Source: Leptonemataceae bacterium
GTDB lineage: Bacteria; Spirochaetota; Leptospiria; Leptospirales; Leptonemataceae
DNA length: 64,000 nt
Reading direction: 5' to 3'
NCBI GenBank assembly: GCA_965227295.1
Contig: OZ245742.1
Location: forward strand, 3,296,001-3,360,000
Program-made: the position numbers and the translations under genes
Part shown: piece after piece, positions 8,492 through 62,264 of the stretch
Numbering within the stretch: the first letter of the stretch is position 1
How the letters are laid out: the number at the start of each line of letters is the position of its first letter
Notes under the pieces: model-generated
The model's input: only the letters and a program-made list of their open reading frames with translations
Databases searched by the model: none
Told to the model about the DNA's origin: nothing

Positions 8492-8562
8492 ACGTGCAGT
8501 CATATTCTGAGTGAGTCGCCAATTCACACAAGGAATAAATCCGTATGATATATAAATCTTGC

Positions 8563-18917: not shown

Positions 18918-18963
18918 GGGAAACGATGGCGGGCACGCGGGGCCGTGTCGAGTATTAAAACTC

Positions 18964-19100
18964 TTGAGGGGGTAGCGGAGGACCGAAAGTGACCCGGCAG
19001 CGCTGCCCGGAGGGTGGCGCGGTCGCCGCAGGCGAGCCGGGGCACGGTTTCGCGCGTAGCGCGAAATTCGGGCCGGAGCGAGGGGGAGCGCAGCTCCCCC
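18964..19100 (+). repeat. Structured intergenic repeat, family B, copy 1
   Basis: TTGAGGGGGTAGCGGAGGACCGAAAG...GGGGGAGCGCAGCTCCCCC; collinear homologue at 46737-46870. Confidence 0.9.
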
Positions 19101-19180
19101 ATCCAAATGAATTTTTTGTCCGCCTGTTCCTTCCTCTGTTTCGCTTTACAGCTTTTTGGATGCGGAAAATCTTTTGTTTC

Positions 19181-22300: not shown

Positions 22301-22552
22301 TTAATCTTCCAGCTTACTTTTCGAAGACTCTCCCGGATACCACAGGAGTTCGATTTCGATTTCACCCGCGGCGGCGCCGTCGCTGCTTTCGCACTGGAGC
22401 TTGAGTCGCATTTCCTCGGGCGCGTCCACCAGGTGGCCGCCGATGCGGAACTTACCGGCTTCCACGGCGTCCGCCAGGCGCCGCAGGCGTTTTGCGGCGC
22501 GACTCCGATCGGTGACGTACTTCGCCTGAAATAACGTGAGTTCTTTTTTCAT
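22301..22552 (-). CDS. Amphi-Trp domain protein
   Basis: RSRAAKRLRRLADAVEAG amphipathic helix and EIEIELLW end motif; ATGA overlap with the upstream paralogue. Confidence 0.8.
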   Translation of the reverse strand: MKKELTLFQAKYVTDRSRAAKRLRRLADAVEAGKFRIGGHLVDAPEEMRLKLQCESSDGAAAGEIEIELLWYPGESSKSKLED

Positions 22553-22815
22553 GCCGCTCCGTCCTCCTGCCACTCGATCGGCCAGCTGAGTTCCACTTCG
22601 ATTTCAAAATGTTGCGGCGCCCCGAATTCCGCGGGCGGGTCCTCGTGTTTCTCTTCCAGTTCGATCTTCATGTGAAACGTTTCCGGAATGGCCAGGCCGT
22701 CTTCGCCGGGTTGGAACGTGCCGCCTTCGATTTGAGCGGCCAGTTCGCGCAGGCGTGCTGCGATCGCCGACCGGGAGGATTTTTGAAACGAACGGAATTC
22801 CAGATCGCCGACCAT
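22549..22815 (-). CDS. Amphi-Trp domain protein
   Basis: RSAIAARLRELAAQIEGG and EIEVELSW; AGGAG RBS upstream. Confidence 0.8.
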   Translation of the reverse strand: MVGDLEFRSFQKSSRSAIAARLRELAAQIEGGTFQPGEDGLAIPETFHMKIELEEKHEDPPAEFGAPQHFEIEVELSWPIEWQEDGAA

Positions 22816-22868
22816 GCGAGTTAGATCTCCTGAGTGCCTTACCGTGTCAACGTACTCAACAGGTTAAC

Positions 22869-25800
22869 TTAAGAAAGTTTCGCCGTTGTTGCAGGCTTAA
22901 GGTATTCTCGCGCGGCCTTGCTGAAGGCGAGCATCATCTTTCGTAAATCGCCGCCGTAGCGCGCGGGATCGGGGCCGCGATTCTGGGTCCGTGCCCGCTG
23001 CAATTCGTCCCGGCGTTCGTCTTCTTTGAACGGATTCCAGAGACCGAAGCCGATGTTGTTTTCGATGAGTACCGGTTTCCAGTCGGTAATGTCCTCGGGG
23101 CCGGCCCGGCTCGTCGCGCCGTTGTCGGCGAGGACCGTCATGGATGTGAGCCGGTCCGCGATGCTGCCGACGCCGTCCCGCGCATATTCGTAACCCACGA
23201 TTTCCGGCGTCTCGATGAGTTCGTCGTCTCCGCCGATGCGCAGCACCGGCGTGTCCAGAAAATCGTGCATCATGTAGCGCGGCCGGCTGTACGGATGCCC
23301 CGTTCGATCGTGTCGCTCACGCAGACGACGCCCCAGTAATTGCTGATGATCTTCAATTACGCCGGGATCGTCCGGAGATGTCAGGCGCGACCACAGTGCG
23401 TCCGAGCGTAACTCGATGGCGTGCATGCTGGCCAGGGCCGCTTCCCGGCGCCGGCTGGAGATCGTCTCCGCGGTGGCGGCGTCTCGCGCAAAGGCCGGCC
23501 GCCACTTGAACAACACACCGCCCCGACCGACGTTGGAGACCGCGGCCCGGGACGCCACCGTGAGTTCCAGCACGTACTCCGGTGCTTCGTCCACGTAAAC
23601 GACGATCACGCGTGAGTAAGCGAAGAACTCCGCGTCGGCCGGCGCGGCGATGCCGTGTTTGCGAATGAGTTCCTGGCGCAACCGGCGCAGGTACTCCGGC
23701 GACGCCCACGCCGCGGGATTCGCCGGGATGAGTCGTTGCAGTACCTGGTCGTCGATCCAGCCGACGCGCGCCATGTTCCGCGCCTGGGTGAGCACGTTTT
23801 CCTCCAGCACGTTGCCGGCCCCGTCCCGCAGTTGGGCCGGGAAGGCCAGGCGCCCGCCGGACTGTCGCGCTGCTTTCGAAATGCATTTCCAGTGAAAGTG
23901 AGTGAGGCCGCCGGGAAAACGAGCGCTGCCCCGGCTGAGTTCGGCGACGATTTCGTCTTCGTCCCGGGGCGTGCCGTCCGCGTGAAACTGGTATGATTTT
24001 TTCCAGTGCAACTCCTCGGGTACGCTGACGCCGCGGCCGGGGGCGTGGATGCGCGCGTGTTCGAGTTTGTCGTACATTAAAATGTTGTGAATCCAGGCTT
24101 GTACCGACGGCAGCCCGATGCGTTCGTCGAGGCCCTGCAGGTAATAGGGCGCGCCGTGGAACGGAAAGGACAGGCAGTTTCGTAGCGGTCGTTCGAAGCG
24201 TACGCCGATCATCACGCCGCGCGGTTCGTCTCCGGCGTTTGCATGAAGTCCCGGCGGCAGCGTTAAGTGCTTTTGATGTTCACTCAGTCGGCGAAAGACT
24301 TCGGCATCCACGTACATGAATCCGTGGGGGATGCGCAGGCTTTCGTCATTCTCGTCGAAAAGCAGGGCGCGGCCGAGCACCCAGTTGCACGCGTCTCCGG
24401 GATGTTCGCGGTTGTAGAGCGGGTTTTCTTCGAAGAACGTTAAGAGATGCGGTCGACCCGGCGGGCAGACGATGGCCACGGCCGGACGGTTGCCGTCGTC
24501 GAAGAGTTCGGCGGCCTTGCCCGCGCTGACGTCAAAGATCCCCCGGGCCCGGTGGCCCTGCTGATCGACGTGAGCCAGATCACGCTTGTGCGTGTACCAG
24601 AACCATTCGCGCTCGTGTAAGGGATCACTCGCGGCGGGCCCGCCCACCGGCGGTGTCTCCGGAGTGCCGAGCAGGGCATCGACGTAAGCCGGCGGTGCCT
24701 GGCGCAGATACGTGCGCGAACGAAAGAGGCGATCGAAGTAGCGACCGAGCCAGCGATGTTCCTCGACCTGAATTGCGAAGATCTCTTCGCGGGTGAAGGG
24801 CGTCCCCTCGCCGAGCCACGATCCCATGATGTAATCGTAGTCGCTGAAGCCGCTGCCCGCCATCGGCGAGAAGATGCGCCAGGGGTAATCGAAGACGTGG
24901 TCGTAGATCGTCTCCGCGAAGAATTCGGCCACCGCCAGATGCAGGCGGCGAGAGATAGTTTCCTGCTCCGTATTAAGTTCGTCTGAGGTTAAATTAAAAA
25001 GATCCGCGGTCTTGATCAGGGCGAAAAGCACGTCGAAGAGACCGGCTACGCGCGCGACAGGTCGCAGCATATCCTTTTGACCGGCGCAGCGGTAGGCGAG
25101 GCGGCCGAAGTCTCCCGGATCGTCACCGCGGCCGGCGAGTTCCAACCAGGCCTCGGCCTCGGGATTGCGGCCGGCGTCGAAGAGCAACCGACCGCGCGTG
25201 AGCATCGCTCGTTTTTCCGGCGTGTCCTCGCCCTGGTAACATTCTTCGACGATCGCGTGAAAGGCCCGTTCAGTAATCGCCAGAAATTCGCCGCAGCTTT
25301 CCCGGGCGATGCCCTGCGTCTCCGGACCGAGGTCCACGCTGTTCAGTATTTCCGCGGCGCGATCACACAGGGCTTCCACGGTATTCGGCGTTGCGTCGGC
25401 CAGGCCTTTGCGATAGCCGCTCACCTGGCGACGAATGGATCGCGCGCGCCTCTGCAAAAGATGGCGTTCGAGAGCGCTGCCCGCGGATTCGTCGACGGCT
25501 TCTTCGCGTTTCTTAATGGAAGTGCGCTCACCGTAGACTTCCCGCATGGCACCCACCGGCGCCGTGTACTCCGGGCGCACGAAGCATGCTTCGACGCGTT
25601 GAACCGCATCGGGTCCAAAGCCCGCGTGCTCATCTTCTTTGCCGTTCAGCCGCCGCGTCGCCTCTTCGAAGCGTCGCTTTTCCAGGGCGACCTCCGCTGC
25701 CGGGCGGCCGTTGACCAGGAAGAGCCCGCCGGCGACGAGCCACAAACCGTAATCCAGCGTACCTTTGCCGGTGAGCAGATGAAACCAGCCTTCGCGCATT

Positions 25801-28800
25801 AAGGCATGGCGTTCGGACCAGTTGTAGAACCCGCCGCCGCGCCACCATTCCGCGGAGTGGATGGCCAGCTCTTCTTCGTCCCGGGCCTTGCGGTAACGAT
25901 CCCGGGCCAGTTCGCGGATGACGGTCAGGCATTCTGTTAACTTCTCTTTATCGCCGGCTAAGAGGGTGTCCCGGTAGGCGGCCGCGGCCTCGCATTCTTC
26001 GCGGACGTCGCGCTCGTAGTACTGTAGTTCGTCGAAGCCCACTGCCGGTGACAGATAATAACCGCCCAGGGACAGCCAGGTCTTGATCGCGGTGCGGTCG
26101 AGGGCGGTCTTGCGGCCCTGCACCGGGGCGTCGAAGAGAATGAGAGCGCTTTCGGGCCGTCCGTCTCGCATGTCCGCTGCCGCCCGCGGCAGGTCGTCCA
26201 GGATGGTACGCGCGCTATTTCGCCGGGGATGGCGTTCGATCTCCACCCCCTCGTCTTCGCTGCCGGTGAGTTCGTCGTAGTGCACGATGACCGGCAACAC
26301 GTCGGAACCGCGGAAGGCCTCGCGCAGATCGGTGCCCGGCCCGGCACGATACTCGGGATTCTTGAGGCGGACGTCGAAGACGAGGGCGTGCACCAGACCG
26401 CCCAGGGGTCGTGCGAGTTCCGCGTAACTTTCGTCCGGTAGATCTTTGAGGGTGGTCCAGGAGCGGAGGCGAGCGCCGTAGGTCAGGCAGTTCGCGTCGA
26501 TCTCCTCGTCGCTCATGGACCAGGCAGGGTTCGCGCCGCGCCGGCTGTAACGTGCCAGGCAGGCGTGAATGAGCCGCCGCACCCGATCGGCCCAGGTGGA
26601 AAGCGTGCTCCCGGAAACGTAGTTGTAGACGGACTGCGTGGACATGTTGAACGGCGTGAACAGGCGGATGTCCGCCGGGGCCGAGGTCCGCGGGTATTGC
26701 TGCGCCAGATCCCGCAGGTCGTCGTCGCTCAACTCCCGGCCGTCGTCGTAGAGGCGCTCGGCCAGTAGCTTACGCTGAGTTGTATCTTGTGCATCGAAGC
26801 CGTTCAACAGTAATTGCGCCGTCGCTTCACCCTCGCGATCCAGGCTGGAGTAGATGTGTTCGAGCAGGTGCCGGCCGTCGTGCACGCCGGCGGCGGCCAT
26901 CAGCTCAAACATGCGCAGGCCCATGCTGAGTCGCGCATCGGAGACGGGTTTGTATTCGACGGGCAGCGGGATCACGGCGTCGGAGTAGGCGGGGCTTTCC
27001 GGGCGACGCTCGCGAACGATGTCGAAGGCCTGGCGCAAAAGAAAGATGAGGCTGACCGGCACGAAGCGCATGCGCGACTCGAGCACCTGTAAGATCTTAC
27101 CCTGATACACGCCGTGCACGGAACGCAGGAAACCGCGCGGGTCCACGCGCGGGTCGCGCACGCCGATGCGGTCCGCCGCGGTGAAGAAAGCCGCGGAAGG
27201 CAGCATGCCCCGCGGATGAAAGAGCGAGGGTTCACCGCCGGCCTCGAAGTGCTCGGCCGGTTCGAAGCCCGGTCGACGTTCCGCCGCTTCCACGGCGGTG
27301 AACACACTCTCGCAGCGTTGCGCAAAATCGCGGACGGCGGTTTCGTTCATGACGCCGGAGAGACGATCGGTTAACCTGCGGCGCAGAGATGTTAGCGAGG
27401 ACCAGCGATCCACCGGCAGGCCGGCGTAACGATAGACCTCGTCCCGGGTAATGACGTTCACGAAGTACCAGTAATAGATGTCCTTGGGTTGACAGAAACC
27501 CGTGGAACCCGCACCGCCGGGACGGACTTTGATTTCCGGGCGTTCGGTGCTGTCCGCGGCCAGGCGCTGGAAGTGGCCGACACCGATGGACAACTGCAAC
27601 GCCTGGAAGATGTGCGTGAGGGCGAGCTGGGCTTCCATGATGCCGTTCTCAAACGGTTTCGATTCTTCGGCGTGGCGTACGTCTTCGAAAGAACGCACGT
27701 CGTAATTGTAAAGATCGTAAAAGTTCTCCATGGCGATGCGGGCCGCCCGGTCCGCGGGGCCGATCCACTGCGGCCACTCCTGCACGCTGATGCGTTCCCA
27801 GAATCCCAGGTCCACCCGCGACGGGCCGTAGCCGCGATGGTACTTCTTGTTGCCGCCGCGCGCCTCGTACGAAAAGAGCGGATCGTTCTTGAGCACGAAG
27901 AGCGGCAGCGGCTCGTCCTCGATCGTGCCGGGAGTTTCGCGGTACTCGTCCTCGCGGATCAGCGTGCCGTTCGTGCGCAGACGATAGCGCAGCAGCACCT
28001 CGTCGCGATGAGTGCTCATGCCGAGATCCAGCTTCATGCGGATGATGCGCGGCAGGCTGTCCTCGCTCTGGCCGGCCGTGTACCATTCCATGGTGGGTCC
28101 GAGTGCGTGTTCCTGGATTGCACGCTGCCGGGCCAGGATGCGCAGCTCGTTCTGAAATTCCAGCCCGTACACGGGGTGATTCTGAACGTCATTTTCCGAC
28201 AGAACGCCGTCTTCGATGTCCCAGCCCAGTTCCGGGTTGCGCCGGATGATTTGTTCGAGCGCCGTGCCCCGGAGTTCTTCGCCGTGATTTGCCAGCGCCG
28301 CCTGCGCCGCCGGCGGTTCTTCCGCGTAGCGTCGTTCGCGATGCGGCAGGCTCTGCCAGAGAACGAAACGTTTGGCCGTCTCCCGGCTCACGTCCCGGTT
28401 GCGCAGGATGAGCTGCAGCACCGCGCGTTCCACGGCGGCCTCGGAATCGTCGGCACCGCTCTCGCCGATGATCTCGTCGATGCGATAGTCCAGGCGAAAC
28501 TCCTCGATGACCGAGCGGCCGATCTCCGCAAAGTGCCGGCGAGTTTCTCCCAGGTGTTCGCGGGCTTCTTCTTCTAAGGTACGACCGCCGTAAGTGAAGG
28601 CCGTGGTGAGATTCGTGCAGGTCATCTCGTCGTCGAACCAGAAGCCGGCGCAGAGATCCGTAAGGCCGGCGGCCTGAGTCGTCAGCACAATCCAGAGCGG
28701 TACCGAACGACGGCGGCGGAGCGCCAGGTCTTCGCGGAGAACCGCGTCGCGAATGTCCCTTGCACGAAAGGTGTACGCAGTCGAACTTAAGGCCGTATCG

Positions 28801-30791
28801 ATGCCTTCCAGGCGCACGTCCAGTTCTTCGAGCCGGAGGCCGGCGAGGCTCCGATCTTGGTCCAGGTCCGCGAACAAGGCCTCAACGCGCGGCAGCGAGT
28901 CCGCTTCCATGCGTTGGGCGATTTCCCGCCGACGTTCACGCCAGCGCTGATGGACGAGGGCGCTCAGGCCGGCGACGAGTTCCCGCACCCGGGACTGCTC
29001 TTTGGATTCCCGCAGGGCCTGAAGCACGTCTTCTTCGCGTGCCCCGGGATTCGCTGAGTTCATTTCATCGTCGATTAAGCCGAGCAAACGCGCCGCGTAG
29101 TCCCGGGCCACGGCGACATGCTCGCTCAGGATCACGTCGGCGATATTTTTGCGAAAGGACTGGCCGATCAATCGAATGGCCTTCTCGAAGTTTTCCTGTT
29201 CGATGACGATGGGCGCGCCGCCGGCCTCTGCGTCGGTTTCGTGAATGTAAAGGCCGATGGCCTCGAGGATCACGTCCGCCGCTTCGAACCAGGCGTTGTC
29301 GGATTCGCCCAGGACGTTGTGTCCGCCGGCCCGCAGGGATTCTTCAATCAAACCTTCGGTGGTGTCGAAGGGGTCCACACCGAGGGCCGTCGTGGCCAGG
29401 TTCCAGACCCCCGTCGCCGACGCGCGCTGAATGGAAACGCTGAGCGCGGCGTCGCGCCCGCCGCTTCGGTCCAGGCGTTTGTAAACGGCGTCGACGGCCT
29501 CTCGTACGTCCGCGGCAAAACGGTCCGCAAATTCACGGAGGCGTTCCACGCCGTGCTGCTTCGGCTGCGCGGGGGCCCGGCCGCGGCGCTTTTGGTAGTA
29601 AGATCGGACGGCGGCGTGGATACGGCCGTGGTAGTCGTCGATGCGCTGTTCGAAGCGACGCAGATTTCCCAGCAGCCGCGCCTTCGAAACGGAAGGGGCG
29701 CTGAGCACGGCTTCCAGATCGCGAAGACCGGCGCTTAACTTCGAACGCAAAGCAGTTAGATGTTCGCGCAGTTCTTCCGGGCCTGCGTCGTCGCGGCGGG
29801 AATGCAGCAGGCGTTCCATCTTACGGACCTTCTTGCGCAGTTTCTCCACGTCATGGAGGATCTGCGCTTCCGCCGTGAGCAGAGTGATGAAGTACGACGC
29901 GCGGCTGAAGCGGCTGACAAACAGCGTGCGCCCGTCTTCCAGGCAGCGTTCGCGCAGGCGACGGACGTTGGCCCGGCTGAGTTCCGCATCGAAGTCCGCG
30001 GAGGCATAGACCTCGGTAAGCAGGCGGTGGTTGCGTTCGTCGGGATTCTTTTCGAAGAAGACGACGTCGCGCAGGGCTTCGAGGGAGACGGGCCAGTCGA
30101 TGGTGCTCGCGGCGCGCAGCCAGGCGATGCGCTGTTCGCGCCAGGCCGCGCCGCCGGAGTTCAGGCGTTCGTCGAAACAGTCGGCGATGGTGAGGGCGAA
30201 GACGTTGTCGCTGTCGAGCCAGGGGCCCCGTAATACGTGATCGAGAGAAGTTAGCAGCCCCGGTTCCTTTTTTCGGACCGTGTCGAGAAACTCGAAGCAG
30301 CCGAGCAGGGCCGGGACGAACCCCCGGCGCTCTTTCTTTTTGGCCGGCAGCACTCCCGCCGCGAATAACCGGACCACGGCGGCGAGTACGGCGAGTCCGC
30401 GCTCATCGTCGCCGCGCGGTACGTAGCTCTCGCCGTGGAGGCGAACAGTCGTCCCCTGTGAGACGGCGTCCTGCATGCGGGCCAGAACGCCGGCGTCGAT
30501 GACGATGCGGGGATCATCCTGTGTGACTGTGACGAGGTGTTCTGCGCCGTGGACATAGCGCAGAGGAATCTTGCGCAAACGTTTGCGAACTTCTTTCGCG
30601 AGCTTCGAAGAGAGTTCCTCCAGCAACGTTTCGCCGGAAGCGATGAATCGTTTTGCCGCGACGGCGTCTCTGGAGTCGGCGGGTCCCGGGGACGCCGCAC
30701 GCCGGGCCTGCCAGCGATCGGCAGGTTGTCGGGGCGCTTGATCAACGATGGTTAAGAATGCGGTTTCAGTCGATGTTCGATCGGAGGGCAT
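22869..30791 (-). CDS. Giant 2640-aa protein: expanded UDP-glucose/GDP-mannose dehydrogenase-like region plus C-terminal ATP-grasp domain
   Basis: Dehydrogenase motifs in canonical order: ADVILEAI, NFEKAIRLIG, LTTQAAG, PSRVDLG, AEESKPFEN, RPGGAGSTGFCQPKD, YKPVSDARLS. ATP-grasp motifs: YDKL, ISKAARQSGG, VLQRLI, SRVIV, SNVGRGG, LIENN. Confidence 0.75.
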   Translation of the reverse strand: MPSDRTSTETAFLTIVDQAPRQPADRWQARRAASPGPADSRDAVAAKRFIASGETLLEELSSKLAKEVRKRLRKIPLRYVHGAEHLVTVTQDDPRIVIDAGVLARMQDAVSQGTTVRLHGESYVPRGDDERGLAVLAAVVRLFAAGVLPAKKKERRGFVPALLGCFEFLDTVRKKEPGLLTSLDHVLRGPWLDSDNVFALTIADCFDERLNSGGAAWREQRIAWLRAASTIDWPVSLEALRDVVFFEKNPDERNHRLLTEVYASADFDAELSRANVRRLRERCLEDGRTLFVSRFSRASYFITLLTAEAQILHDVEKLRKKVRKMERLLHSRRDDAGPEELREHLTALRSKLSAGLRDLEAVLSAPSVSKARLLGNLRRFEQRIDDYHGRIHAAVRSYYQKRRGRAPAQPKQHGVERLREFADRFAADVREAVDAVYKRLDRSGGRDAALSVSIQRASATGVWNLATTALGVDPFDTTEGLIEESLRAGGHNVLGESDNAWFEAADVILEAIGLYIHETDAEAGGAPIVIEQENFEKAIRLIGQSFRKNIADVILSEHVAVARDYAARLLGLIDDEMNSANPGAREEDVLQALRESKEQSRVRELVAGLSALVHQRWRERRREIAQRMEADSLPRVEALFADLDQDRSLAGLRLEELDVRLEGIDTALSSTAYTFRARDIRDAVLREDLALRRRRSVPLWIVLTTQAAGLTDLCAGFWFDDEMTCTNLTTAFTYGGRTLEEEAREHLGETRRHFAEIGRSVIEEFRLDYRIDEIIGESGADDSEAAVERAVLQLILRNRDVSRETAKRFVLWQSLPHRERRYAEEPPAAQAALANHGEELRGTALEQIIRRNPELGWDIEDGVLSENDVQNHPVYGLEFQNELRILARQRAIQEHALGPTMEWYTAGQSEDSLPRIIRMKLDLGMSTHRDEVLLRYRLRTNGTLIREDEYRETPGTIEDEPLPLFVLKNDPLFSYEARGGNKKYHRGYGPSRVDLGFWERISVQEWPQWIGPADRAARIAMENFYDLYNYDVRSFEDVRHAEESKPFENGIMEAQLALTHIFQALQLSIGVGHFQRLAADSTERPEIKVRPGGAGSTGFCQPKDIYYWYFVNVITRDEVYRYAGLPVDRWSSLTSLRRRLTDRLSGVMNETAVRDFAQRCESVFTAVEAAERRPGFEPAEHFEAGGEPSLFHPRGMLPSAAFFTAADRIGVRDPRVDPRGFLRSVHGVYQGKILQVLESRMRFVPVSLIFLLRQAFDIVRERRPESPAYSDAVIPLPVEYKPVSDARLSMGLRMFELMAAAGVHDGRHLLEHIYSSLDREGEATAQLLLNGFDAQDTTQRKLLAERLYDDGRELSDDDLRDLAQQYPRTSAPADIRLFTPFNMSTQSVYNYVSGSTLSTWADRVRRLIHACLARYSRRGANPAWSMSDEEIDANCLTYGARLRSWTTLKDLPDESYAELARPLGGLVHALVFDVRLKNPEYRAGPGTDLREAFRGSDVLPVIVHYDELTGSEDEGVEIERHPRRNSARTILDDLPRAAADMRDGRPESALILFDAPVQGRKTALDRTAIKTWLSLGGYYLSPAVGFDELQYYERDVREECEAAAAYRDTLLAGDKEKLTECLTVIRELARDRYRKARDEEELAIHSAEWWRGGGFYNWSERHALMREGWFHLLTGKGTLDYGLWLVAGGLFLVNGRPAAEVALEKRRFEEATRRLNGKEDEHAGFGPDAVQRVEACFVRPEYTAPVGAMREVYGERTSIKKREEAVDESAGSALERHLLQRRARSIRRQVSGYRKGLADATPNTVEALCDRAAEILNSVDLGPETQGIARESCGEFLAITERAFHAIVEECYQGEDTPEKRAMLTRGRLLFDAGRNPEAEAWLELAGRGDDPGDFGRLAYRCAGQKDMLRPVARVAGLFDVLFALIKTADLFNLTSDELNTEQETISRRLHLAVAEFFAETIYDHVFDYPWRIFSPMAGSGFSDYDYIMGSWLGEGTPFTREEIFAIQVEEHRWLGRYFDRLFRSRTYLRQAPPAYVDALLGTPETPPVGGPAASDPLHEREWFWYTHKRDLAHVDQQGHRARGIFDVSAGKAAELFDDGNRPAVAIVCPPGRPHLLTFFEENPLYNREHPGDACNWVLGRALLFDENDESLRIPHGFMYVDAEVFRRLSEHQKHLTLPPGLHANAGDEPRGVMIGVRFERPLRNCLSFPFHGAPYYLQGLDERIGLPSVQAWIHNILMYDKLEHARIHAPGRGVSVPEELHWKKSYQFHADGTPRDEDEIVAELSRGSARFPGGLTHFHWKCISKAARQSGGRLAFPAQLRDGAGNVLEENVLTQARNMARVGWIDDQVLQRLIPANPAAWASPEYLRRLRQELIRKHGIAAPADAEFFAYSRVIVVYVDEAPEYVLELTVASRAAVSNVGRGGVLFKWRPAFARDAATAETISSRRREAALASMHAIELRSDALWSRLTSPDDPGVIEDHQQLLGRRLRERHDRTGHPYSRPRYMMHDFLDTPVLRIGGDDELIETPEIVGYEYARDGVGSIADRLTSMTVLADNGATSRAGPEDITDWKPVLIENNIGFGLWNPFKEDERRDELQRARTQNRGPDPARYGGDLRKMMLAFSKAAREYLKPATTAKLS

Positions 30792-33700: not shown

Positions 33701-33867
33701 CGGTAGGAGTGATAGAGGTTCGTATGAAAACCGAAGGTAACGTAGACTTTGTGCGGGCTTTCCCCGCCGAGAGTTTTGATGCGCGGCACGAGTATGACCA
33801 GCAGCCAGTAGGCGATGAAGATGACGAACAGCGCTACGATCAACGCGCGCCAGAGCAGTGCTTTCAT
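30766..33867 (-). CDS. Membrane-anchored glycoside hydrolase / polysaccharide-deacetylase-fold (GH38/GH57-like) protein with C-terminal FN3-like domain
   Basis: N-terminal TM segment; GFHTNLYHSY metal-binding-like motif; ARPQEMM, NFDADDE; beta-rich C-terminal half; APGGF..YFHW..YRV..TYHAAVKS FN3 pattern. Confidence 0.55.
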   Translation of the reverse strand: MKALLWRALIVALFVIFIAYWLLVILVPRIKTLGGESPHKVYVTFGFHTNLYHSYRIDTNDEAGFGKDIRIIRRIIEVLDEHNEKGTPVKAHWDIENLFSLQETLPEYAPDIIEDIRRRVKENGDDIVLMSYNNGLMSAMNEEEFRAAMERAITNPARSGNQDVFGEWSPIARPQEMMATPGTYDLYKQLGVNALIFYYSAITFDTFRVFERELTLEEAHNPLLYKHPDTGEEIIVMPAYNVGDLIENVSLKRWVRTLRRAQLSGEIDRDVLITLNFDADDEYWYGYKLPSHLKWLPNTGGLEQLLQELAGLDYVEFTTVTEYLNQHDPAGEITFGQDPADGSFNGYSSWAEKATTQDYWTRLTASRRVEELAENLYGGNVPGGLAQTLKQLFEVRLRLLSTTNFGMATPYLARAREQVVRKLVDNMDALTARARAQLETAARGRSAGAVPGRDLPGDAERIDSFSFTRAEPRFNRDNPDNGFSGQTGGAVITLSVTKFPDDERDYLVTDEQGNALRTYTLLTTDDRAKLYIAPASDDNVLRDGRYSLYLAPRESSVAVTAAKDHLRNEFVEILLNEHGHVQAVNARMDEGLPYLPRLEAGSLIPAITYDRRRFAPENLKVSVEQDGTRGVATVRLTGEFPLPGIDGSKAGRIDYRISLVEDVPYVFVEGGILYPETVREDYVKLEQASLTRKLDRKWDEVMPAPLRFAVPASTDKPFRVLKRNYLGTESSYTVDYFKHSDANLNLANINNHITAEYAAVSAETLGVAVAMDTTVQANFAFAPMQQVKPSVFDDRLKIRINPFGAHFGDQYYQPTWGNRQGFQAAFISGNQYASSAPTWNGFQHPFSLMIAFFEPGRGKPNPGANQERVILPQDVRNDLVTFARPPLTATSTRGTATPITVSFAQELAAPGGFLAANDASGVYFHWEQAAGEPTAYRVSLGPAQGEYHHEYEATDTTLFLNEIAAGEPFEAGKTYHAAVKSLGTKNGAKTAESDFSREYVFTYQPPSSEKKGPKVPLSLQLKILWYALRSNID

Positions 33868-34008
33868 AAGTCCCCCTGAAAACGAAGGCAGAAATGGAAT
33901 GACGTGACTTTCTTTGCAAGAAGAAGATGAAGAACGAAGAAGTATTTATCCTCCTTGTCCGTCCCGAGTATTTCGTGACGTACGCCGTAATCCCTGCAAA
34001 ATGACCGC

Positions 34009-34425
34009 ATGCCCCACATCACGAAACTCGAAGTCAAACAGGCCTTCGCCGAATTTCCGGCCGAACTGCGCGAACGTCTTCTGGCCGTCCGTGATCTCAT
34101 CTACGAAATCGCCGCCGGGGACGAGGAGATCGGCAACGTCGAAGAAAGCCTCAAGTGGGGTCAGCCCAGTTATTCCGTAAAAACCGGTACCCCCGTGCGC
34201 CTGGGCGTGCACTCCGCCGAGCGCGGCGAATGCGCCCTGTATGTGCATTGCCAGACGAATCTCATTGCCGGCTTTCGCCGCAAATACGCATCGCGCAGCG
34301 GCGGTCGCACGCCCGTGGACTTCGACGGCAATCGGGCTGTAGTACTCCGTGGTAAGAAGTTACCCGTGCGAATCTTGCGAGAGTGCATCCGCGCGGCGCT
34401 GACCTACCGGCTTCAGTCCAGGTAA
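34009..34425 (+). CDS. DUF1801 (YdhG-like) protein
   Basis: EESLKWGQPSY, LYVHCQTNL, FDGNRA, CIRAALTY. Confidence 0.8.
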   Translation: MPHITKLEVKQAFAEFPAELRERLLAVRDLIYEIAAGDEEIGNVEESLKWGQPSYSVKTGTPVRLGVHSAERGECALYVHCQTNLIAGFRRKYASRSGGRTPVDFDGNRAVVLRGKKLPVRILRECIRAALTYRLQSR

Positions 34426-35726
34426 CCGAACCAGCGCGGAAGCAGCAGCGAAAGTTCCGGCACCAGCGCCGTAATGCCCAGGACCACGAGCATGGCGGCG
34501 AAGAGCGGCAACATGGGCCGCACCACACGTTCCAGCGGCACCCCGGCCGTGCTGCAACCGACGAAGAGGACGCTGCCCACCGGCGGCGTGCAGATGCCGA
34601 TCGATAGATTCAAAATCATCATAATCCCGAAGTGCACCGGGTCCACGCCCAGCTCCCGGACCACCGGTAAAAAGACCGGCGTAAAAATCAGCACGGCCGG
34701 CGTAATGTCCAAAAAAGCGCCGACGATGAGCAGGATCAGGTTCATCATCAGCAGGATGATGATCGGGTTGTCGCTCCAGGCCAGCAGGGCCGTGCTTAAG
34801 TTCTCGGGCAGGCGTTCGTAGGCCAGGGTCCACGCCAGCGCCGAGGAACAGGCGATTAACAACAACACAACAGAAGTTACGGCGGCGCTTTCGCGCAGCA
34901 ACTCCGGCAGTTCGCGCCAGGAAATTTCGCGATAGATCAGCACCGACAACACGAATGTATACACGACGGCGGCGGCGCTGGCCTCGGTGGCGGTGAACCA
35001 ACCGGCCACGATACCGCCGATGACCACCACGATCAAAAACATCGACGGGGCCGCGTTGGCGAAGGCGCGGAGGGCCTCACGCAGTTCCAGGTTTGCCGCG
35101 CGGCCGTAGCCCCGGCGTTTGGCCATCACGGCGGCGGTAAGAATCAAGGCCAGGGCGATGAGCAGACCCGGCAGGTAGCCGGCCAGAAACAGCGCCGCAA
35201 TGGAAACGCCGCCGCTGGCCAGGGAGTAGATGATCAGAATGTTCGAAGGCGGCACGATCAGTCCGGTGGTGCTTGAGGTAATGTTCACCGCGGCGGCGAA
35301 GGCCGGGTCGTAGCCCTCGCGTTTCATCATGGGCGTAAGCGCGCCGCCGATGGCGGCGGCCGCGGCAACGGCGGAGCCGGAGACCGCGCCAAAGAGCAGA
35401 CATGCCGTCACGTTCACCGCGGCGAGGCCGCCGGGCAGGCCGCCCACTAACACGCGGGCAAACGCGATTAAGCGCCGGGCAATGCCGCCGCGGTTCATCA
35501 ACTGGCCGGCCAGAATAAAAAACGGAATCGCGAGTAAAGCGAACGAGTCCAGGCCGGCGGCCATGCGCTGGGCCGTGCTCGTGAAGGCGATGTCCGCGGG
35601 CAAACTGAGCAGGAGCGCAGCCGTTGCGGCAATGCCGATGCTGTACGAGATCGGCGTACCGAGGATGAGCGGAACCCCGAAACACGCGAGAAAGACGAGC
35701 ATATGCAGTACGTTAAGTTCGATCAT
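34413..35726 (-). CDS. dctM: TRAP transporter large permease
   Basis: LLAIPFFILAGQLM, GAVSGSA, IVPPS, FTATEA, GICTPPVG. Confidence 0.93.
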   Translation of the reverse strand: MIELNVLHMLVFLACFGVPLILGTPISYSIGIAATAALLLSLPADIAFTSTAQRMAAGLDSFALLAIPFFILAGQLMNRGGIARRLIAFARVLVGGLPGGLAAVNVTACLLFGAVSGSAVAAAAAIGGALTPMMKREGYDPAFAAAVNITSSTTGLIVPPSNILIIYSLASGGVSIAALFLAGYLPGLLIALALILTAAVMAKRRGYGRAANLELREALRAFANAAPSMFLIVVVIGGIVAGWFTATEASAAAVVYTFVLSVLIYREISWRELPELLRESAAVTSVVLLLIACSSALAWTLAYERLPENLSTALLAWSDNPIIILLMMNLILLIVGAFLDITPAVLIFTPVFLPVVRELGVDPVHFGIMMILNLSIGICTPPVGSVLFVGCSTAGVPLERVVRPMLPLFAAMLVVLGITALVPELSLLLPRWFGYLD

Positions 35727-36189
35727 GGCTCTCGAAAAACAGGAAATACACGGCGTACACGAATACAAAACAACCGCTCACCGGCACCGCCAGGTAAACG
35801 TATCCCAACGGTAAGTTTAACGCGGCAGAGGTTTGCCGGAGTTCGAAGGCCGTGTAGCTTAAATAGCCGCCCCCGCCGATCAGCACGGACAGCGCGAAGG
35901 CGGCCGTCAGGACTTCCACGATCACTCGCAGTACGGCCCGGCCACGGGGGCCGAGACGATTCGGCAGCAGTCCCACCGCCAGATGGCGCCGGCGACCGCC
36001 GGCATAAGCGCCGCCGAGAAAACCGAGCCAGACGAGCAGATAACGCGCGAGTTCCTCGGTAAAAGACGAGGGGTCGCCGAGCACGAAGCGCGTAAAGACC
36101 TGCCACACAACATTCAGCACGCTCACCGCCATCAACAGGGCCGTGGCGCCGCCGAGAAAACCGTCGATGATGTTAAACAATCGCTGCAT
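35713..36189 (-). CDS. dctQ: TRAP transporter small permease
   Basis: QVFTRFVL..SSFTEELARYLLVWLGFLG; four TM segments. Confidence 0.9.
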   Translation of the reverse strand: MQRLFNIIDGFLGGATALLMAVSVLNVVWQVFTRFVLGDPSSFTEELARYLLVWLGFLGGAYAGGRRRHLAVGLLPNRLGPRGRAVLRVIVEVLTAAFALSVLIGGGGYLSYTAFELRQTSAALNLPLGYVYLAVPVSGCFVFVYAVYFLFFESHDRT

Positions 36190-36194
36190 GAAAG

Positions 36195-37175
36195 TTAGTG
36201 GGACTGCTGAATGCGCCGAAACCACGGCCCCAGCTCCGGATCCCGGGCGAACTCTTCGTGCATGGCGGACGTGCGTTTGCGAAAGGGAGCCGGGTCCGGC
36301 TCGTAGATGCGCACGCCGGCCCGGCGGACTTCCCGCAGGGCGTGTTGCGTCGCTTCCCGCCACAGTCGCTTTTGCAACTGCGCGGATTCGTCGGCGGCCT
36401 GCTGAAGCCAGACGCGTTCTTGTTCGTTCAAACGATGCCAGGTCGGCGTGCCGATCAGCAAAACGTCGGGTACCGCGCTGTGACGATTGAGGGCGTAGTG
36501 TTTGCAGACCTCGTAGTGCCCGGAAAGATAAAAGCTCGGCGGATTGTTTTCCGCCCCGTCCACGATGCCCTGCTGCAGCGCCGTATACAACTCGCCCCAG
36601 GCGATGGGAGTGGCCGATCCGCCCAGGCTGCGCACCAGTTGTAAAGCCACGGGGCTTTCCTGGACGCGAATCTTCAGGCCGCGCAGATCATCGGGGTGCA
36701 GGATCGGCGGCTTAGCTTTTTTTGTGTAAAAGCTACGCCAGCCGGAGTCGTAATAGCACAGACCGCGCAGACGATAACGTTCGCCGCGTCGCAGCAGTTC
36801 CCGGCCGATTTCGCCTTCCAATACGCCGAAACGATGGGCGTCATCGCGAAAGAGATACGGGAGCCCGAGGACCCGGTACTCCGGCACGAAACCCTCGAGG
36901 GCCGAGGAGGAGACCTTGGTCATGGCCAGGCTGCCCAACTGCAACAGCTCGAGGCTCTCACGTTGTGTGCCCAGTTGATTGCCCGGGTGCACGTCCACGC
37001 GCACGGTGCCGCCGGACAACTCAGCCAGGCGTTCCCCGAGATGCAACATGGCCCGGTGCACCGGGTGCGAAACATCCAGGCCGTGGCCGAGCTTGAGGAC
37101 TTTAACCTCGCGGACCTCTCCGCACGCGGTGAGCCAGAGAAGCGTGAGCAACACGAGGGCGCCGGCTTTCCGCAT
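36195..37175 (-). CDS. dctP: TRAP substrate-binding lipoprotein
   Basis: LTAC lipobox; GLKIRVQ (carboxylate-binding Arg); ELYTALQQGIVDGAEN. Confidence 0.93.
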   Translation of the reverse strand: MRKAGALVLLTLLWLTACGEVREVKVLKLGHGLDVSHPVHRAMLHLGERLAELSGGTVRVDVHPGNQLGTQRESLELLQLGSLAMTKVSSSALEGFVPEYRVLGLPYLFRDDAHRFGVLEGEIGRELLRRGERYRLRGLCYYDSGWRSFYTKKAKPPILHPDDLRGLKIRVQESPVALQLVRSLGGSATPIAWGELYTALQQGIVDGAENNPPSFYLSGHYEVCKHYALNRHSAVPDVLLIGTPTWHRLNEQERVWLQQAADESAQLQKRLWREATQHALREVRRAGVRIYEPDPAPFRKRTSAMHEEFARDPELGPWFRRIQQSH

Positions 37176-37178
37176 GAT

Positions 37179-38948
37179 CTATGCTAACTCCATGCCGGCG
37201 TCGGTTAAGACGACTTCAATCATGCCGCCGCCGCCCGCGCCGGCGTAACAACCGCCGTAAATCAATCCGGCCTCTTCGAGTTCTTGAAAGAGTAGTTCGA
37301 CCTTCGGATTCGTCGTGCCCGGATCGATGCGTGTGCGCAGCCAGCGGTACTCGCTCAGGAGCGTTCCCAGTTGTTTCCAGTTACGCTCTTGCAGGGCCGT
37401 GACGATGTCGTCGTGCATGCGAATCGATGCGAGCATGGCCGCGCAGGGTTTCGCCTCGCCCAGGAAGAAGGCCGCGGCACGAACGTTCAGTCGGCTGAAC
37501 GCCCCGGTATCTTTCGGACGCGGCATGGTGTAAACATAAGCGAGGCGACGGCTCAGCTCAAGGGCGTCGACGCCGGTGAGCGCGCCGAGATCGCGGATAC
37601 GCAGTTCCGGGAGTTGCCGTCGGTTCGGCGGCAGGAGGCGGACCTCGTTCAGTCCACCCTTGAGCCCGAAGGCGTCCTGAAATCCGGAGCGACGGCCGAC
37701 CCAGTTTTCGAACAGACAGGCGATCCAGAATATATCCGGCTGATGTAAAAATTGATTCTGTCCGGAAATTGCATACAGGCAGTGCAGGCCGAGCAGGGCG
37801 ACGGCGCTGCTGGAAGAAAAACCGGCGCCCGTGGGGCCGGTGTTGAATGATTCAAAGGCCAGGCCCCGGAAGCCGCGGCTTCCCGCGAAGTCTCGCAGGT
37901 CCTGGAGCACGGGATGGTCTCCGTGTTGCGGCGGCCGCAGGCAGGTGTCGTCCGCCCGGTACGGATCACAGCGCACGATGCCGCTGAAACAGAGCAGGGC
38001 TTTGAGAAAATAGACCGGGTCCTCGTTGCCCTCCGTATCACGGTACTGCGGCGCAAAGACCTGGGCGGCGGTGATGTCTTTCCCGGGCACACAAAAGAAC
38101 GTGCGAACGAAGTCCGGGCCGGCGCTGCCCGGGTCCAGAGGAATCTCCCGTCGGTGTTCCCGGCCGTCAAAGACGGCGTGCATACGCAGCAGGGGTTCGT
38201 CGATGCCGCGGATGCGCAGGCGCACGTTGGGCGGGAACTGCTGCGTGTTAACATCATTGGATGTGGAGTTAAGATCGTAAAAATAATCCGGCGGTTCGTC
38301 CGGGCCGCCGCTCACGCCGCCGTCGTTGGGTCGGACCTCGTAGATGGTGAGGCGATCCAGGCCGATGCGCGCTTTCAGTTCGTTCAGGAGAAATTGATCG
38401 AATCTTCGCACTTGCGATGGTTGTTCGGACAGACTGCGTACGTTTGCGTTGAAATTCACGGCCACCCCGCCCGGTGCCTCCGCATCGCGGTTGATTGTCG
38501 CCGCCGCAAGGTTGTCCGAGGCGTTGCCGCTGTGCAGCGGGGCCCGCAACCCGGCCACCGCATAGAAGGAGTCGGCCTGCATGGCGGGCCGTGTTTGCCT
38601 GGAAGGCCGCATGATTTCGCGCATGACCTCGAAGAAGTACGCCGTCTCCCATTGCGCGGCCTGTTCTTCCAGTTCCCGTGAACGTTCCGGTGCATCTTCC
38701 GCACGATGCAGGGCCGCGAGAAGATAACACAGGCGTTCGCGCCACAGCGGCAGGAATTCGCGGCCGATCCGGGAAAGGAGCGGCTCTAACTCTGAATCAG
38801 TGCGTGTTAGTAGCTGTTCCAGTTCCCCAATGCATACCTGGCGATCAACCCTGGAATCATGTTCCAGGAACGGGGCGAGACTCCGCGAAAAACACTGCTC
38901 TCCGAGGAGCAACGCCGTGAGTTCCGCCGTCTCAGAACGATCGGGCAT
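37179..38948 (-). CDS. GHMP-family sugar kinase (HddA/fucokinase/uronokinase-like) with N-terminal extension
   Basis: PTGAGFSSSSA, SGFQD..GGLN, GAGGGG; motif-I-like RAPL..SDN. Confidence 0.8.
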   Translation of the reverse strand: MPDRSETAELTALLLGEQCFSRSLAPFLEHDSRVDRQVCIGELEQLLTRTDSELEPLLSRIGREFLPLWRERLCYLLAALHRAEDAPERSRELEEQAAQWETAYFFEVMREIMRPSRQTRPAMQADSFYAVAGLRAPLHSGNASDNLAAATINRDAEAPGGVAVNFNANVRSLSEQPSQVRRFDQFLLNELKARIGLDRLTIYEVRPNDGGVSGGPDEPPDYFYDLNSTSNDVNTQQFPPNVRLRIRGIDEPLLRMHAVFDGREHRREIPLDPGSAGPDFVRTFFCVPGKDITAAQVFAPQYRDTEGNEDPVYFLKALLCFSGIVRCDPYRADDTCLRPPQHGDHPVLQDLRDFAGSRGFRGLAFESFNTGPTGAGFSSSSAVALLGLHCLYAISGQNQFLHQPDIFWIACLFENWVGRRSGFQDAFGLKGGLNEVRLLPPNRRQLPELRIRDLGALTGVDALELSRRLAYVYTMPRPKDTGAFSRLNVRAAAFFLGEAKPCAAMLASIRMHDDIVTALQERNWKQLGTLLSEYRWLRTRIDPGTTNPKVELLFQELEEAGLIYGGCYAGAGGGGMIEVVLTDAGMELA

Positions 38949-40251
38949 GTCTCCATCCCGTGGGGCGAGGGTTGACTTCCAGAATCACGAAGTCGATCCC
39001 GTGGTTGCCCTGGACCGGCTCGAGGTCTACGCCGGCCACCGCCAACTGTCCGGCCTGGCTTTCCGGGGCCGTGTTGATCGCCTGAAGCGCGGCCCTGGCG
39101 AGGTCCCGGCCGCGTTGCCTGGCGTCGTCGTTGAGCAGATGGCGAACGTCGTCTGCGTCCAGCCGGCGGATGCTCCCGCCGTTGGACGTAATCGAGCCCG
39201 GTGTGCCGATCATCCAGAAGCCGCTGCACTGGCCGTGCGGATCCACGTTCAACCGCAGCGTCAGGCGCCGACCGTCCGGGCGGATGCCGTCGCCGATCTC
39301 AGGGCGCACGATCCAGTCGCCGGCGGGGAGGCTCACTTCGCTTAAGTTATCTTTTTCGAGATCTAAGAGTCGGTGGTTCCGACCCTCCGTGCCGTACCGC
39401 GGTTGCAGCCGGAAAAGAGAGGACTCTCCGGCTTGCCGTAGTTGCTGTGGGGACGCGGGCCAGAGCCATGCCGGAGGCGCCGGGAGGCCGGCCCGGGCTA
39501 AGGTTTCGCCGGTACGTAGTTTGTCCTCGGCCAGGGCGGCGGCGGAGGCGGGCGCGCCGCTACGAAGTTCATACCCGTTCTCCTGACGAACGCCGGCCGC
39601 ACGCAGGACGGCGCTCCAGCGTGCGTGTTCTCTCGACTCGTTGCGACTCAGTGCCAGGAAACGTGCGCTCTGCGGCAGGAGCGGCGTTTGCAGGGGGATT
39701 TCGATCAGTTCTTCGAAGGACGGTCCGTAGAAGATGCCGCGTTCCAGGCGACCGTCGGCGCGGATCCATGATGTGAGCGCGGCTACGATACCGCAGTTCG
39801 AACGGCGGCGATGTTCAAGCTGCATGATCGGAAAGATTTCGTCGAGGAGGCCGGCGGTGTCGTCGGCGATGAGGACTAATATTTGGGACGTAGAACTCAG
39901 TCCGTCGATGCGGGCCGGCGGATCGGCCGGGGCCGGGACGATTTGCAGTTCCGGCGTGCCGGGCTCCGGTGCGGACCAGAGTTCGGACAGGGTCGTCTCC
40001 ACAATGCGCCGGCGGTACAGCGGATCGGCGTTTTCGCATTGCCGTTGCAGGGCGTCCGTGAGAAATGCTTCGGCGTATCCGAGATCGTCGCGGATGTCCT
40101 GCAACGGCAATGCGGCCGCCAGGTCCATGAGCTGAAGTTTGAGAACGACCGCCTGGTGTTCCTCGCGAAGATCCTCCACGGACGTGAGGCCCAGACGTTC
40201 GGCGGCCGCATCCGCGAAACTGAGGGCGTCCTGGGACGGAGGCGAGTTCAC
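38932..40251 (-). CDS. ATP-grasp fold protein
   Basis: EDKLRTGETLARAGLPAP, QPRYGTEGRN, LRLNV, AGVDL, ILEVNPRP. Confidence 0.8.
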   Translation of the reverse strand: MNSPPSQDALSFADAAAERLGLTSVEDLREEHQAVVLKLQLMDLAAALPLQDIRDDLGYAEAFLTDALQRQCENADPLYRRRIVETTLSELWSAPEPGTPELQIVPAPADPPARIDGLSSTSQILVLIADDTAGLLDEIFPIMQLEHRRRSNCGIVAALTSWIRADGRLERGIFYGPSFEELIEIPLQTPLLPQSARFLALSRNESREHARWSAVLRAAGVRQENGYELRSGAPASAAALAEDKLRTGETLARAGLPAPPAWLWPASPQQLRQAGESSLFRLQPRYGTEGRNHRLLDLEKDNLSEVSLPAGDWIVRPEIGDGIRPDGRRLTLRLNVDPHGQCSGFWMIGTPGSITSNGGSIRRLDADDVRHLLNDDARQRGRDLARAALQAINTAPESQAGQLAVAGVDLEPVQGNHGIDFVILEVNPRPTGWRHARSF

Positions 40252-62183: not shown

Positions 62184-62264
62184 AAGTGATGAATCATCAT
62201 CCGGCAGGGCCGCAGAGCAACCACAAAACACTTGAGGTGCTCCGCACAATCATCAGTATGCCGC

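Follow-up and report, generated by a model that had tools for sequence, protein, structure and literature searches.

Amphi-Trp proteins mark the uncharacterised GAK (Grasp, Amphipathic, Kinase) system. In the phylum of the present host, canonical GAK clusters, two of which were annotated, comprise a 380-residue protein, one or two amphi-Trp proteins, a PhoU/APH-like kinase, grasp_GAK, HprK_rel_B, CofD_rel_GAK, and a pair of amphi-Trp proteins at the end; loci with this order are L041 (G104:C29:27000-44000), L039 (G009:C13:40000-58000), and L040 (G051:C59; judged by layout only). Among ATP-grasp enzymes, LysX and ArgX ligate onto the acidic tail of LysW, and RimK ligates glutamate onto the tail of S6. 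Plant glucuronokinase and galacturonokinase, which belong to the GHMP family, are precedents for the phosphorylation of hexuronates, and amidation of the glucuronate carboxyl has a precedent in Campylobacter jejuni Cj1438 with its ATP-grasp amidoligase domain. Here we analyse a locus of a Leptonemataceae bacterium (Spirochaetota) that is built around a giant protein, a GHMP-family kinase, and a small ATP-grasp-like ligase, together called the trio. The locus lies in a stretch of 64,000 nucleotides, hereafter the window (contig OZ245742.1 of GenBank assembly GCA_965227295.1, positions 3,296,001 to 3,360,000 of the forward strand), and all coordinates below count from the first letter of the window.

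The locus is best explained as a split copy of a rare, conserved, and uncharacterised three-part system, an explanation that we hold with moderate confidence and for which we infer the following chemistry. A tripartite ATP-independent periplasmic (TRAP) transporter would import a hexuronate or a similar sugar acid, and the GHMP kinase would then phosphorylate the imported acid. The dehydrogenase-like core of the giant would hold the acid, with a role in uronate binding and not in oxidation. Two ATP-grasp domains would activate carboxyls as acyl phosphates and join them to amines or amino acids by amide bonds. Every enzyme falls into a known superfamily, and there are precedents for the likely chemistry. 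The core parts of the trio, and the two domains recognised in the giant, are:

38932..40251, minus strand: second ATP-grasp-like ligase (P0002, the small ligase), 439 residues, core part of the trio
37179..38948, minus strand: GHMP-family kinase (P0003), 589 residues with a 310-residue N-terminal extension, core part of the trio
22869..30791, minus strand: giant protein (P0001), 2640 residues, core part of the trio
26607..29939, minus strand: dehydrogenase-like core of the giant, about residues 285-1395, placed by profile and model
22899..24491, minus strand: predicted RimK/LysX-like C-terminal ATP-grasp domain of the giant, about residues 2101-2631, placed by model

The firmest result is that the two halves of the locus, judged from their homologues, belong to one system, because elsewhere homologues of the giant have the small ligase and the kinase as fused segments or as neighbours. 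Segments related to the small ligase and to the kinase are fused behind giant relatives in 17 and at least 10, respectively, of the 77 proteins of the giant family. In seven family proteins, the small ligase itself aligns with the region that directly follows the giant part (BLASTP, E-values from 1e-19 to 7e-5), and a small-ligase profile finds this position in the 17. The kinase matches the C-terminal segments of the fusions P0061 (4e-15) and P0007 (3e-9), and its profile spans about 570 residues, N-terminal domain included, in P0032 (5.5e-59) and P0049 (1.8e-52). GHMP_kinases_N was present in 8 of 12 long representatives scanned, which were taken from the 15 representatives of more than 3,000 residues plus P0007, with P0008, P0023, and P0026 (all above 5,000 residues) and P0006 excluded. 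P0006 (4332 residues), one of the first two giant relatives found, has a GHMP domain near its C-terminus.

Gene neighbourhoods point the same way. Four other giant-bearing loci were available, from metagenome-assembled genomes (MAGs) of Sumerlaeota, Planctomycetota, and Aerophobetes and from one uncultured bacterium, and three of them, those from the MAGs of the three named phyla (L005, L006, and L008), come with flanking DNA. The small ligase adjoins the giant in all three flanked loci (tblastn), and a GHMP kinase does so in two. Elsewhere, then, the three parts are neighbours or are joined in one protein of 3,000-8,000 residues. This contiguity is not found in the window, where the giant lies about 6.4 kb from the kinase and the small ligase; dctPQM, a DUF1801 gene, and a GH57-like gene stand between them, and the genes form two transcription units. 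The original prediction, made from the letters of the window, had treated both halves as one system, had named the co-occurrence of their homologues as a check, and had cautioned that the halves may be unrelated. The fused and adjacent homologues bear out the first idea, and the fusions with giant homologues counter the caveat.

The split arrangement could also mean that the TRAP transporter, the kinase, and the small ligase belong to an ordinary operon for sugar-acid utilisation that lies near the giant by coincidence. This would agree with the opposite-strand DUF1801 gene between the two transcription units and with the position of the giant, which is not directly beside the kinase or the small ligase. 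However, the small ligase and the kinase each show specific homology to giant-fused segments, their counterparts adjoin the giant in other phyla, and a word-indexed search of 5.8 billion clusters found a single stand-alone relative of the small ligase. Moreover, because the giant occurs in none of 400 other genomes sampled from the host phylum, a chance pairing of halves about 6.4 kb apart is very unlikely. A coincidental neighbourhood is thus largely refuted, and we regard it as hardly credible.

The giant family is rare and scattered. A word-indexed search of the same 5.8 billion clusters returned only two relatives of the giant, and an exhaustive HMMER search of 1.84 billion proteins with residues 1441-2640 as query returned 76 other representatives, many of which are 2,000-8,000 residues long. 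P0005 aligns with the giant over its full length (25% identity, E-value 1e-100). The closest relatives, P0007-P0012, share 33-43% identity, and P0007 is the nearest with 43%. The absence from the 400 genomes of the host phylum is mirrored in the Planctomycetota, where the copy in MAG G002 had no counterpart in 380 other genomes sampled, so that the family appears as scattered singletons. A pattern scan with the close-relative alignment A4 matched 218 metagenome stretches, none of which encoded a relative. Several representatives, namely P0008 (7944 residues), P0023 (6162 residues), P0026 (5085 residues), and P0024 (4426 residues), are longer than a fusion of giant, ligase, and kinase needs. 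P0024 shows a CsrA-like match at residues 1224-1247 (E-value 4.5e-8, with no single stretch passing alone).

In terms of folds, the giant combines a nucleotide-sugar-dehydrogenase-like core with an ATP-grasp domain. Single-sequence scans of the whole protein and of five pieces gave no Pfam or NCBIfam family above cut-off: PF03721, PF00984, and PF03720 were not matched, NF040825 reached 12.5 bits only, and PF00984 appeared below cut-off in 3 of the 12 giant relatives scanned. The assignment of the core comes from profiles and a predicted structure. The family profile A3 (27 members) matched, in the Protein Data Bank (PDB), 4r16 (8.1e-15), 3g79 (4.2e-12), UDP-glucose dehydrogenase 4a7p (2.2e-7), and Cap5O (2.8e-7), and the giant's own core segment matched 4r16 with an E-value of 0.0017. 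In the alignment with 4r16, AEESKPFEN of the giant falls on the central-domain Lys/Asn motif and GFCQPKD on the catalytic-cysteine motif. An AlphaFold model of residues 241-1440 (predicted local distance difference test score, pLDDT, 77.8) was compared with solved structures by VIA-align, and CalS8 (Z 19.4), 4r16 (Z 18.1), and 3g79 (Z 17.9) were retrieved. Matches to nucleoside diphosphate (NDP)-sugar dehydrogenases reach Z 16-19 over 300-330 residues and cover chain residues 1 to about 380; in these full-length alignments the root-mean-square deviation (rmsd) is 6-8 Å and the match is broken by long inserts. GDP-mannose dehydrogenase 1mfz gave Z 17.7 with an rmsd of 2.3 Å over 215 residues, and its chain residues 1-220, which form the first Rossmann domain, are spread across model residues 49-815. 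All three dehydrogenase domains (Rossmann, helical, Rossmann) are recognisable in the core model, split by long helical inserts.

Whether this core oxidises anything is doubtful. The Lys, Asn, and Cys-x-Pro-Lys-Asp catalytic motifs are conserved across the family, but no GxGxx[GA] pattern occurs anywhere in residues 1-1090 of the giant. The loop after strand 1 reads TLFVSRFSRAS (family consensus (G)GRxSRA); going by the predicted model, the glycine-rich loop for nicotinamide adenine dinucleotide (NAD) is replaced by a conserved R-x-S-R-A motif. If the giant were nevertheless a working NDP-sugar 6-dehydrogenase, its own ATP-grasp domain would amidate the resulting uronic acid, and the kinase would feed sugar-1-phosphate to nucleotide-sugar formation. 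The retained motifs and the three recognisable domains fit this idea, as does a phosphoglucomutase gene beside the trio in L006. The altered NAD loop speaks against it; moreover, a nucleotidyltransferase is not part of the conserved set, and the hexuronate-type importer in this genome would make oxidation unnecessary. A true dehydrogenase step is conceivable because the Cys/Lys/Asn set is intact, yet on balance we consider this alternative improbable. NDP-sugar oxidation had been a step of the original prediction; the replaced NAD loop and an imported uronate that would need no oxidation leave this step in doubt. Should NAD binding truly have been lost with the cysteine kept, the giant would be a telling example of an oxidoreductase fold with a new role.

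The core is followed by about 600 helical residues and then by the ATP-grasp domain. A model of residues 1441-2640 (pLDDT 83.9) shows a helical region and, at residues 2101-2631, an ATP-grasp fold for which Foldseek listed Ddl, LysX, and GshB on top (E-value about 2e-4, probability 1.00). In VIA-align, the domain matched LysX 3vpd with Z 21.1 and an rmsd of 3.1 (272 of 281 residues aligned), the LysX/ArgX-LysW structure 5k2m with Z 20.7, ArgX 3vpb with 20.4, RimK 5zct with 20.1, and Ddl with about 17.5. The motifs K2306..SGGR, NVGRGG, and IENNxGxGLW are conserved in the family, and K2306, SGGR, E2577, and N2579 are invariant in alignment A1; the Lys, the Gly-rich loop, and the E-x-N metal site typical of ATP-grasp enzymes are all present. 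By sequence, profile A2 (full-length relatives on residues 1441-2640) retrieved the dehydrogenase part only and no ATP-grasp enzyme from the PDB. The division of the giant into a dehydrogenase-like and an ATP-grasp part, which the original prediction had proposed and single-sequence Pfam searches did not see, was thus recovered by profiles and folds.

The small protein P0002 is probably a second, very divergent ATP-grasp ligase. Its only Pfam match is a weak one to ATP-grasp_3 (E-value 0.017, residues 403-432), and the Pfam ATP-grasp matches of its relatives are also weak (0.0042, 0.006, and 1.9e-4). Profile A5, made with four relatives, matched a D-Ala-D-Ala ligase in the PDB (0.0037). In language-model features, all nearest clusters are ATP-grasp clusters of the RimK/GSH-S/YheCD type (scores 0.95-0.92), and the protein has a C-terminal L-E-x-N-P-R-P motif. 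A 439-residue open reading frame (ORF) near a GH57-like homologue in L022 was considered as a further small-ligase relative and rejected, since tblastn gave no match. The kinase is identified by GHMP_kinases_N (1.5e-5) and GHMP_kinases_C (2.5e-4), both above the Pfam cut-offs, and it matches the fucokinase part of NF009948 (2.6e-9); its language-model feature scores do not exceed 0.85 and serve as leads only.

The gene order and tight packing described in the original prediction were recovered in full: all ten genes lie where it had placed them, as judged from the ORF list, Pfam matches, and inspection of start codons. In 5' to 3' order, the first minus-strand run is ATP-grasp-like ligase, GHMP kinase, dctP, dctQ, and dctM, and the second is GH57-like gene, giant, amphi-Trp A, and amphi-Trp B. 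Besides the trio, the features of the locus are:

36195..37175, minus strand: dctP, TRAP solute-binding protein, PF03480 E-value 3.9e-74, predicted hexuronate type by homology
35713..36189, minus strand: dctQ, TRAP small membrane subunit, PF04290 E-value 7.1e-32, probable start ATG 36189
34413..35726, minus strand: dctM, TRAP large membrane subunit, PF06808 E-value 1.1e-121, probable start ATG 35726
34009..34425, plus strand: DUF1801 gene, PF08818 E-value 4.2e-7, 30.7 bits against a cut-off of 27.2
30766..33867, minus strand: membrane-anchored GH57-like protein (P0004), 1033 residues, Glyco_hydro_57 match below cut-off
22549..22815, minus strand: amphi-Trp A, 88 residues, PF20068 E-value 2.4e-8, 34.4 bits against a cut-off of 27
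22301..22552, minus strand: amphi-Trp B, 83 residues (ATG 22552) or 90 residues (GTG 22573), PF20068 E-value 5e-9, 36.5 bits
21663..22172, minus strand: small protein of 169 residues, four hydrophobic stretches that read as membrane helices, no family

In the first run, the kinase gene overlaps the upstream small-ligase gene by 17 nucleotides and is followed by dctP after 3 nucleotides; dctQ follows after another 5 if ATG 36189 is taken as its start, and the longest dctM ORF begins at 35768. The DUF1801 gene converges on dctM with an overlap of 13 nucleotides, and its start is 141 nucleotides from that of the minus-strand GH57-like gene. It has no counterpart in L005-L008, and it divides the two operons and probably lies outside the system. 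In the second run, the giant gene overlaps the GH57-like gene by 26 nucleotides and is separated from amphi-Trp A by 53. The two amphi-Trp genes share an ATGA overlap if ATG 22552 is the start of amphi-Trp B; AGGAG precedes amphi-Trp A, and AGGAGGA precedes this ATG. The 169-residue ORF, which matched no family in Pfam scans, is preceded by AAGGAG, lies 128 nucleotides downstream of amphi-Trp B, and by this spacing is possibly the last gene of the giant's operon. Scans for promoter-like sites (5 against 3.5±1.9 in shuffled sequence) and terminator-like sites (21 against 19.7±4.7) gave no signal, and the operon calls are therefore based on gene spacing. Marks of a genomic island were not seen either: the window contains no tRNA gene and no notable flanking direct repeats, and its GC content is even.

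The transporter provides the main clue to the substrate. DctP, DctQ, and DctM all score above the curated Pfam cut-offs, and the binding protein reaches 215.6 bits on TIGR00787 (cut-off 175). The best solved relatives of DctP are 4n8y (7.4e-66) and 4x8r (3.2e-64), which align with it from end to end. PMC11668362 gives galacturonate as the ligand of 4N8Y and glucuronate as that of 4X8R. DctP thus appears to be of the sugar-acid (hexuronate) type, in a likeness to these receptors that is drawn from whole-sequence alignment and not from ligand-contact residues, and import of the carboxylate type proposed in the original prediction is supported to this extent. Because the transporter genes start 3 nucleotides after the kinase gene, uptake in this genome is coupled to the kinase and the second ligase. 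With an importer of the hexuronate type in their operon, the 'unknown sugar' becomes a short, testable list.

The genes that flank the trio elsewhere are also sugar genes, several of them related to uronates going by their family names. At the flanked loci these include GH88 (1.2e-81), D-glucuronyl C5-epimerase-like (6.9e-7), and glucuronoyl-esterase-like (3.6e-7) proteins, LacI and ROK regulators, the phosphoglucomutase of L006, and GFO/IDH/MocA oxidoreductases. GH88 and CE15-type enzymes act on glucuronyl substrates, and these neighbourhoods are suggestive of a uronate as the substrate of the trio. In the Aerophobetes MAG, genes for P-II, glutamate dehydrogenase, and a class-III aminotransferase come after those of the giant and the small ligase, at L008:11517-14678 on the plus strand. 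This gene content hints at glutamate metabolism as a possible source of the amine that the ligases would use.

The remaining members of the locus are local additions. The TRAP transporter, the GH57-like protein, DUF1801, and the 169-residue ORF have no counterpart at the three flanked trio loci, and of the genomes examined, this is the only one in which the trio was seen together with amphi-Trp, GH57-like, or TRAP genes. The original prediction had counted the transporter, the GH-like protein, and the amphi-Trp proteins as parts of the system, and the three other flanked loci, which contain none of them, do not support this. The Glyco_hydro_57 match of the GH57-like protein (E-value 0.0031, 17.3 bits) falls short of the 21.2-bit cut-off, and the protein has no sequence relative in the PDB. 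Its family comprises 129 clusters at an E-value of 1e-3 or lower, itself included, and PF03065 is precomputed on 5 of the 120 of these clusters listed. Members of the family stand alone in 25 of 400 other genomes sampled from the host phylum, which again speaks against the GH57-like protein as a part of the system, and in all seven loci examined the neighbours differ and include neither a giant nor an amphi-Trp gene.

The amphi-Trp pair connects the locus to GAK. Both ORFs pass PF20068, as the original prediction would have it for 22301-22815, and on TIGR04354 (cut-off 31) amphi-Trp A scores above with 36.0 bits and amphi-Trp B just under with 30.6. They are the only amphi-Trp matches in the genome of 5.94 Mb, and amphi-Trp proteins occur in 7 of 400 other genomes of the host phylum. 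Nevertheless, the locus is not a GAK system, because the GAK ATP-grasp enzyme, the HprK-related kinase, and the CofD-like protein are all missing from it. For the last two the original prediction had come to the same result: TIGR04357 (GAK CofD-like) has no match in the one-contig, 93.55% complete genome, and the single match of TIGR04355 (HprK-related kinase B) lies about 0.5 Mb away and is far below its cut-off (25 bits against 200). With TIGR04356, the GAK ATP-grasp family, neither the giant nor the small ligase gave an NCBIfam match at an E-value of 0.1 or lower; its single match in the genome, about 2 Mb away, scores 81 bits against a cut-off of 300, whereas genuine GAK ATP-grasp enzymes score 417-439 bits. 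The GAK ATP-grasp profile A7 showed no detectable resemblance to the giant (hhalign probability 0.13%) or to the small ligase (0.75%).

It may still be asked whether the amphi-Trp proteins are integral to a GAK-like small-protein system, serving as substrates or carriers whose tails are extended or loaded by the RimK/LysX-type domain, the group on the protein then being handled by the kinase and the sugar-binding core. Their close and ATGA-coupled position behind the giant, and their status as the sole amphi-Trp genes of the genome, would fit. So would the ATP-grasp domain of the giant, whose Z scores are higher with ligases of protein tails (19.2-21.1 for LysX, ArgX, and RimK) than with Ddl (about 17.5), and the canonical GAK clusters of the phylum, which likewise end with tandem amphi-Trp genes and contain an ATP-grasp enzyme, kinases, and a CofD/YvcK-type protein. 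On the other hand, amphi-Trp was found in none of the four other giant-bearing genomes, which are incomplete MAGs, no GAK enzyme is present at the locus, and the GAK ligase profile stays below 1% with both ligases. Amphi-Trp A and B are also divergent, scoring 31-36 bits on TIGR04354 against 56-72 in GAK clusters, and lack the C-terminal extension of the GAK copies. A complex prediction for the ATP-grasp domain of the giant (A2 residues 641-1200) with amphi-Trp A gave a score of 0.00 and counts neither way. We judge this alternative to be unlikely, although a role of the pair as carrier or substrate is worth testing because the nearest structural relatives of the giant ligase act on small-protein tails. 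Of the overall interpretation in the original prediction, the single system, the folds, and the hexuronate-type transporter stand; the 'GAK-like' framing by way of the amphi-Trp proteins is lost, given the other giant-bearing genomes without amphi-Trp and the unmatched GAK ATP-grasp models.

Several observations weigh against the split three-part system for hexuronate ligation preferred here. The two operons are separate transcription units, and the transporter could be a passenger because it stands beside the trio only in this genome, with no TRAP gene at the three other flanked loci. The ATP-grasp label of the small ligase comes from weak sequence matches and language-model features, and the kinase is without a close characterised relative (best PDB sequence match fucokinase, E-value 0.12). 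In the core of the giant, the loss of NAD binding was read at strand 1 of a predicted model and not from a residue-level alignment, and the retained catalytic Cys, Lys, and Asn could point to a redox or thioester role.

Other genes in the window were inspected as well. An 871-residue protein encoded at 18989-21604 (plus strand) combines an isochorismatase domain (residues 125-259), a TCAD9 kinase-like domain (PF19974, E-value 9.4e-66), and a dual-specificity phosphatase domain (residues 730-858). Its gene converges on the giant/amphi-Trp operon, and in its longest form the ORF shares about 118 nucleotides with the 3' end of a sulfatase ORF at 16737-19106 (minus strand). At 7871-9273 (minus strand), a RiboL-PSP HEPN gene (4.6e-13) and a HipA_2-type kinase gene (8.7e-15) are adjacent and slightly overlapping, and appear to form a toxin or defence pair. 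Two large HAMP-SpoIIE (PP2C) phosphatases are encoded at 9791-13102 (plus strand) and 59073-62249 (minus strand), and a DUF1577 protein at 4444-5694.

A search of the full-text literature, which has most subscription journals outside it, returned nothing on the trio or the giant system. An amphi-Trp protein was met there in one proteomics table entry, in PMC13490349. What is new here is the hexuronate-type transporter clue, the link to amphi-Trp, and the complete genome. The trio represents a conserved system of undescribed function and very patchy distribution. It includes some of the largest bacterial enzymes, the longest fusion among the representatives having 7,944 residues. Amphi-Trp proteins were found next to the trio in the window only, which thereby links two orphan families. 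The host genome (5.94 Mb, one contig, 93.55% complete) is not a fragmentary MAG, and if the organism were cultured, genetics and metabolomics would be possible.

Compared with its counterparts, the trio described here is exceptional in its surroundings, since none of the other four giant loci was seen to have a TRAP transporter, a GH57-like protein, or amphi-Trp proteins, and all three are present here. The core of the giant has the three-domain fold of the NDP-sugar 6-dehydrogenases, such as 4r16 (Pyrococcus horikoshii UDP-ManNAc dehydrogenase), 3g79 (Methanosarcina mazei), 3ojl (Staphylococcus aureus Cap5O), 4xr9 (CalS8), and 1mfz, and shares with them the central-domain Lys/Asn, the G-x-C-x-P-K-D motif, and, in the third domain, Y-K...D-x-R-x-S. 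Unlike these enzymes, it spans about 1,100 residues owing to its helical inserts, has R-x-S-R-A in place of the glycine-rich NAD loop, and is part of a protein with about 1,250 further residues that include the ATP-grasp domain. The C-terminal domain has its best structural matches in LysX, ArgX, and RimK, whose chains align nearly completely (Z 19.2-21.1, rmsd about 3.1); however, identity to them is only 11-17%, and there is no sequence-profile match to any ATP-grasp enzyme in the PDB.

The locus resembles GAK in that a tandem amphi-Trp pair closes an operon with an ATP-grasp enzyme and in that a kinase and a sugar-nucleotide-type binding protein belong to the set; a subfamily related to the CofD-like proteins, TIGR01826, carries the NCBIfam name UDP-GlcNAc-binding YvcK. 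It differs from GAK in its kinase, which is of the GHMP and not of the HprK/APH type, and in its sugar-binding part, which is dehydrogenase-like and not CofD-like. A speculative idea, to which we attach little probability, is that amphi-Trp proteins are portable carrier or tail partners of RimK/LysX-type ligases and were recruited here from GAK to the giant trio. If so, GAK and the trio would be analogous machines, each with a ligase, a kinase, a sugar-nucleotide-type binder, and amphi-Trp proteins. In either case a small protein would bear a phosphorylated sugar-acid group while this group is built or processed, comparable to LysW and its bound intermediates in lysine biosynthesis. The locus would then be the bridge by which GAK and the trio explain each other.

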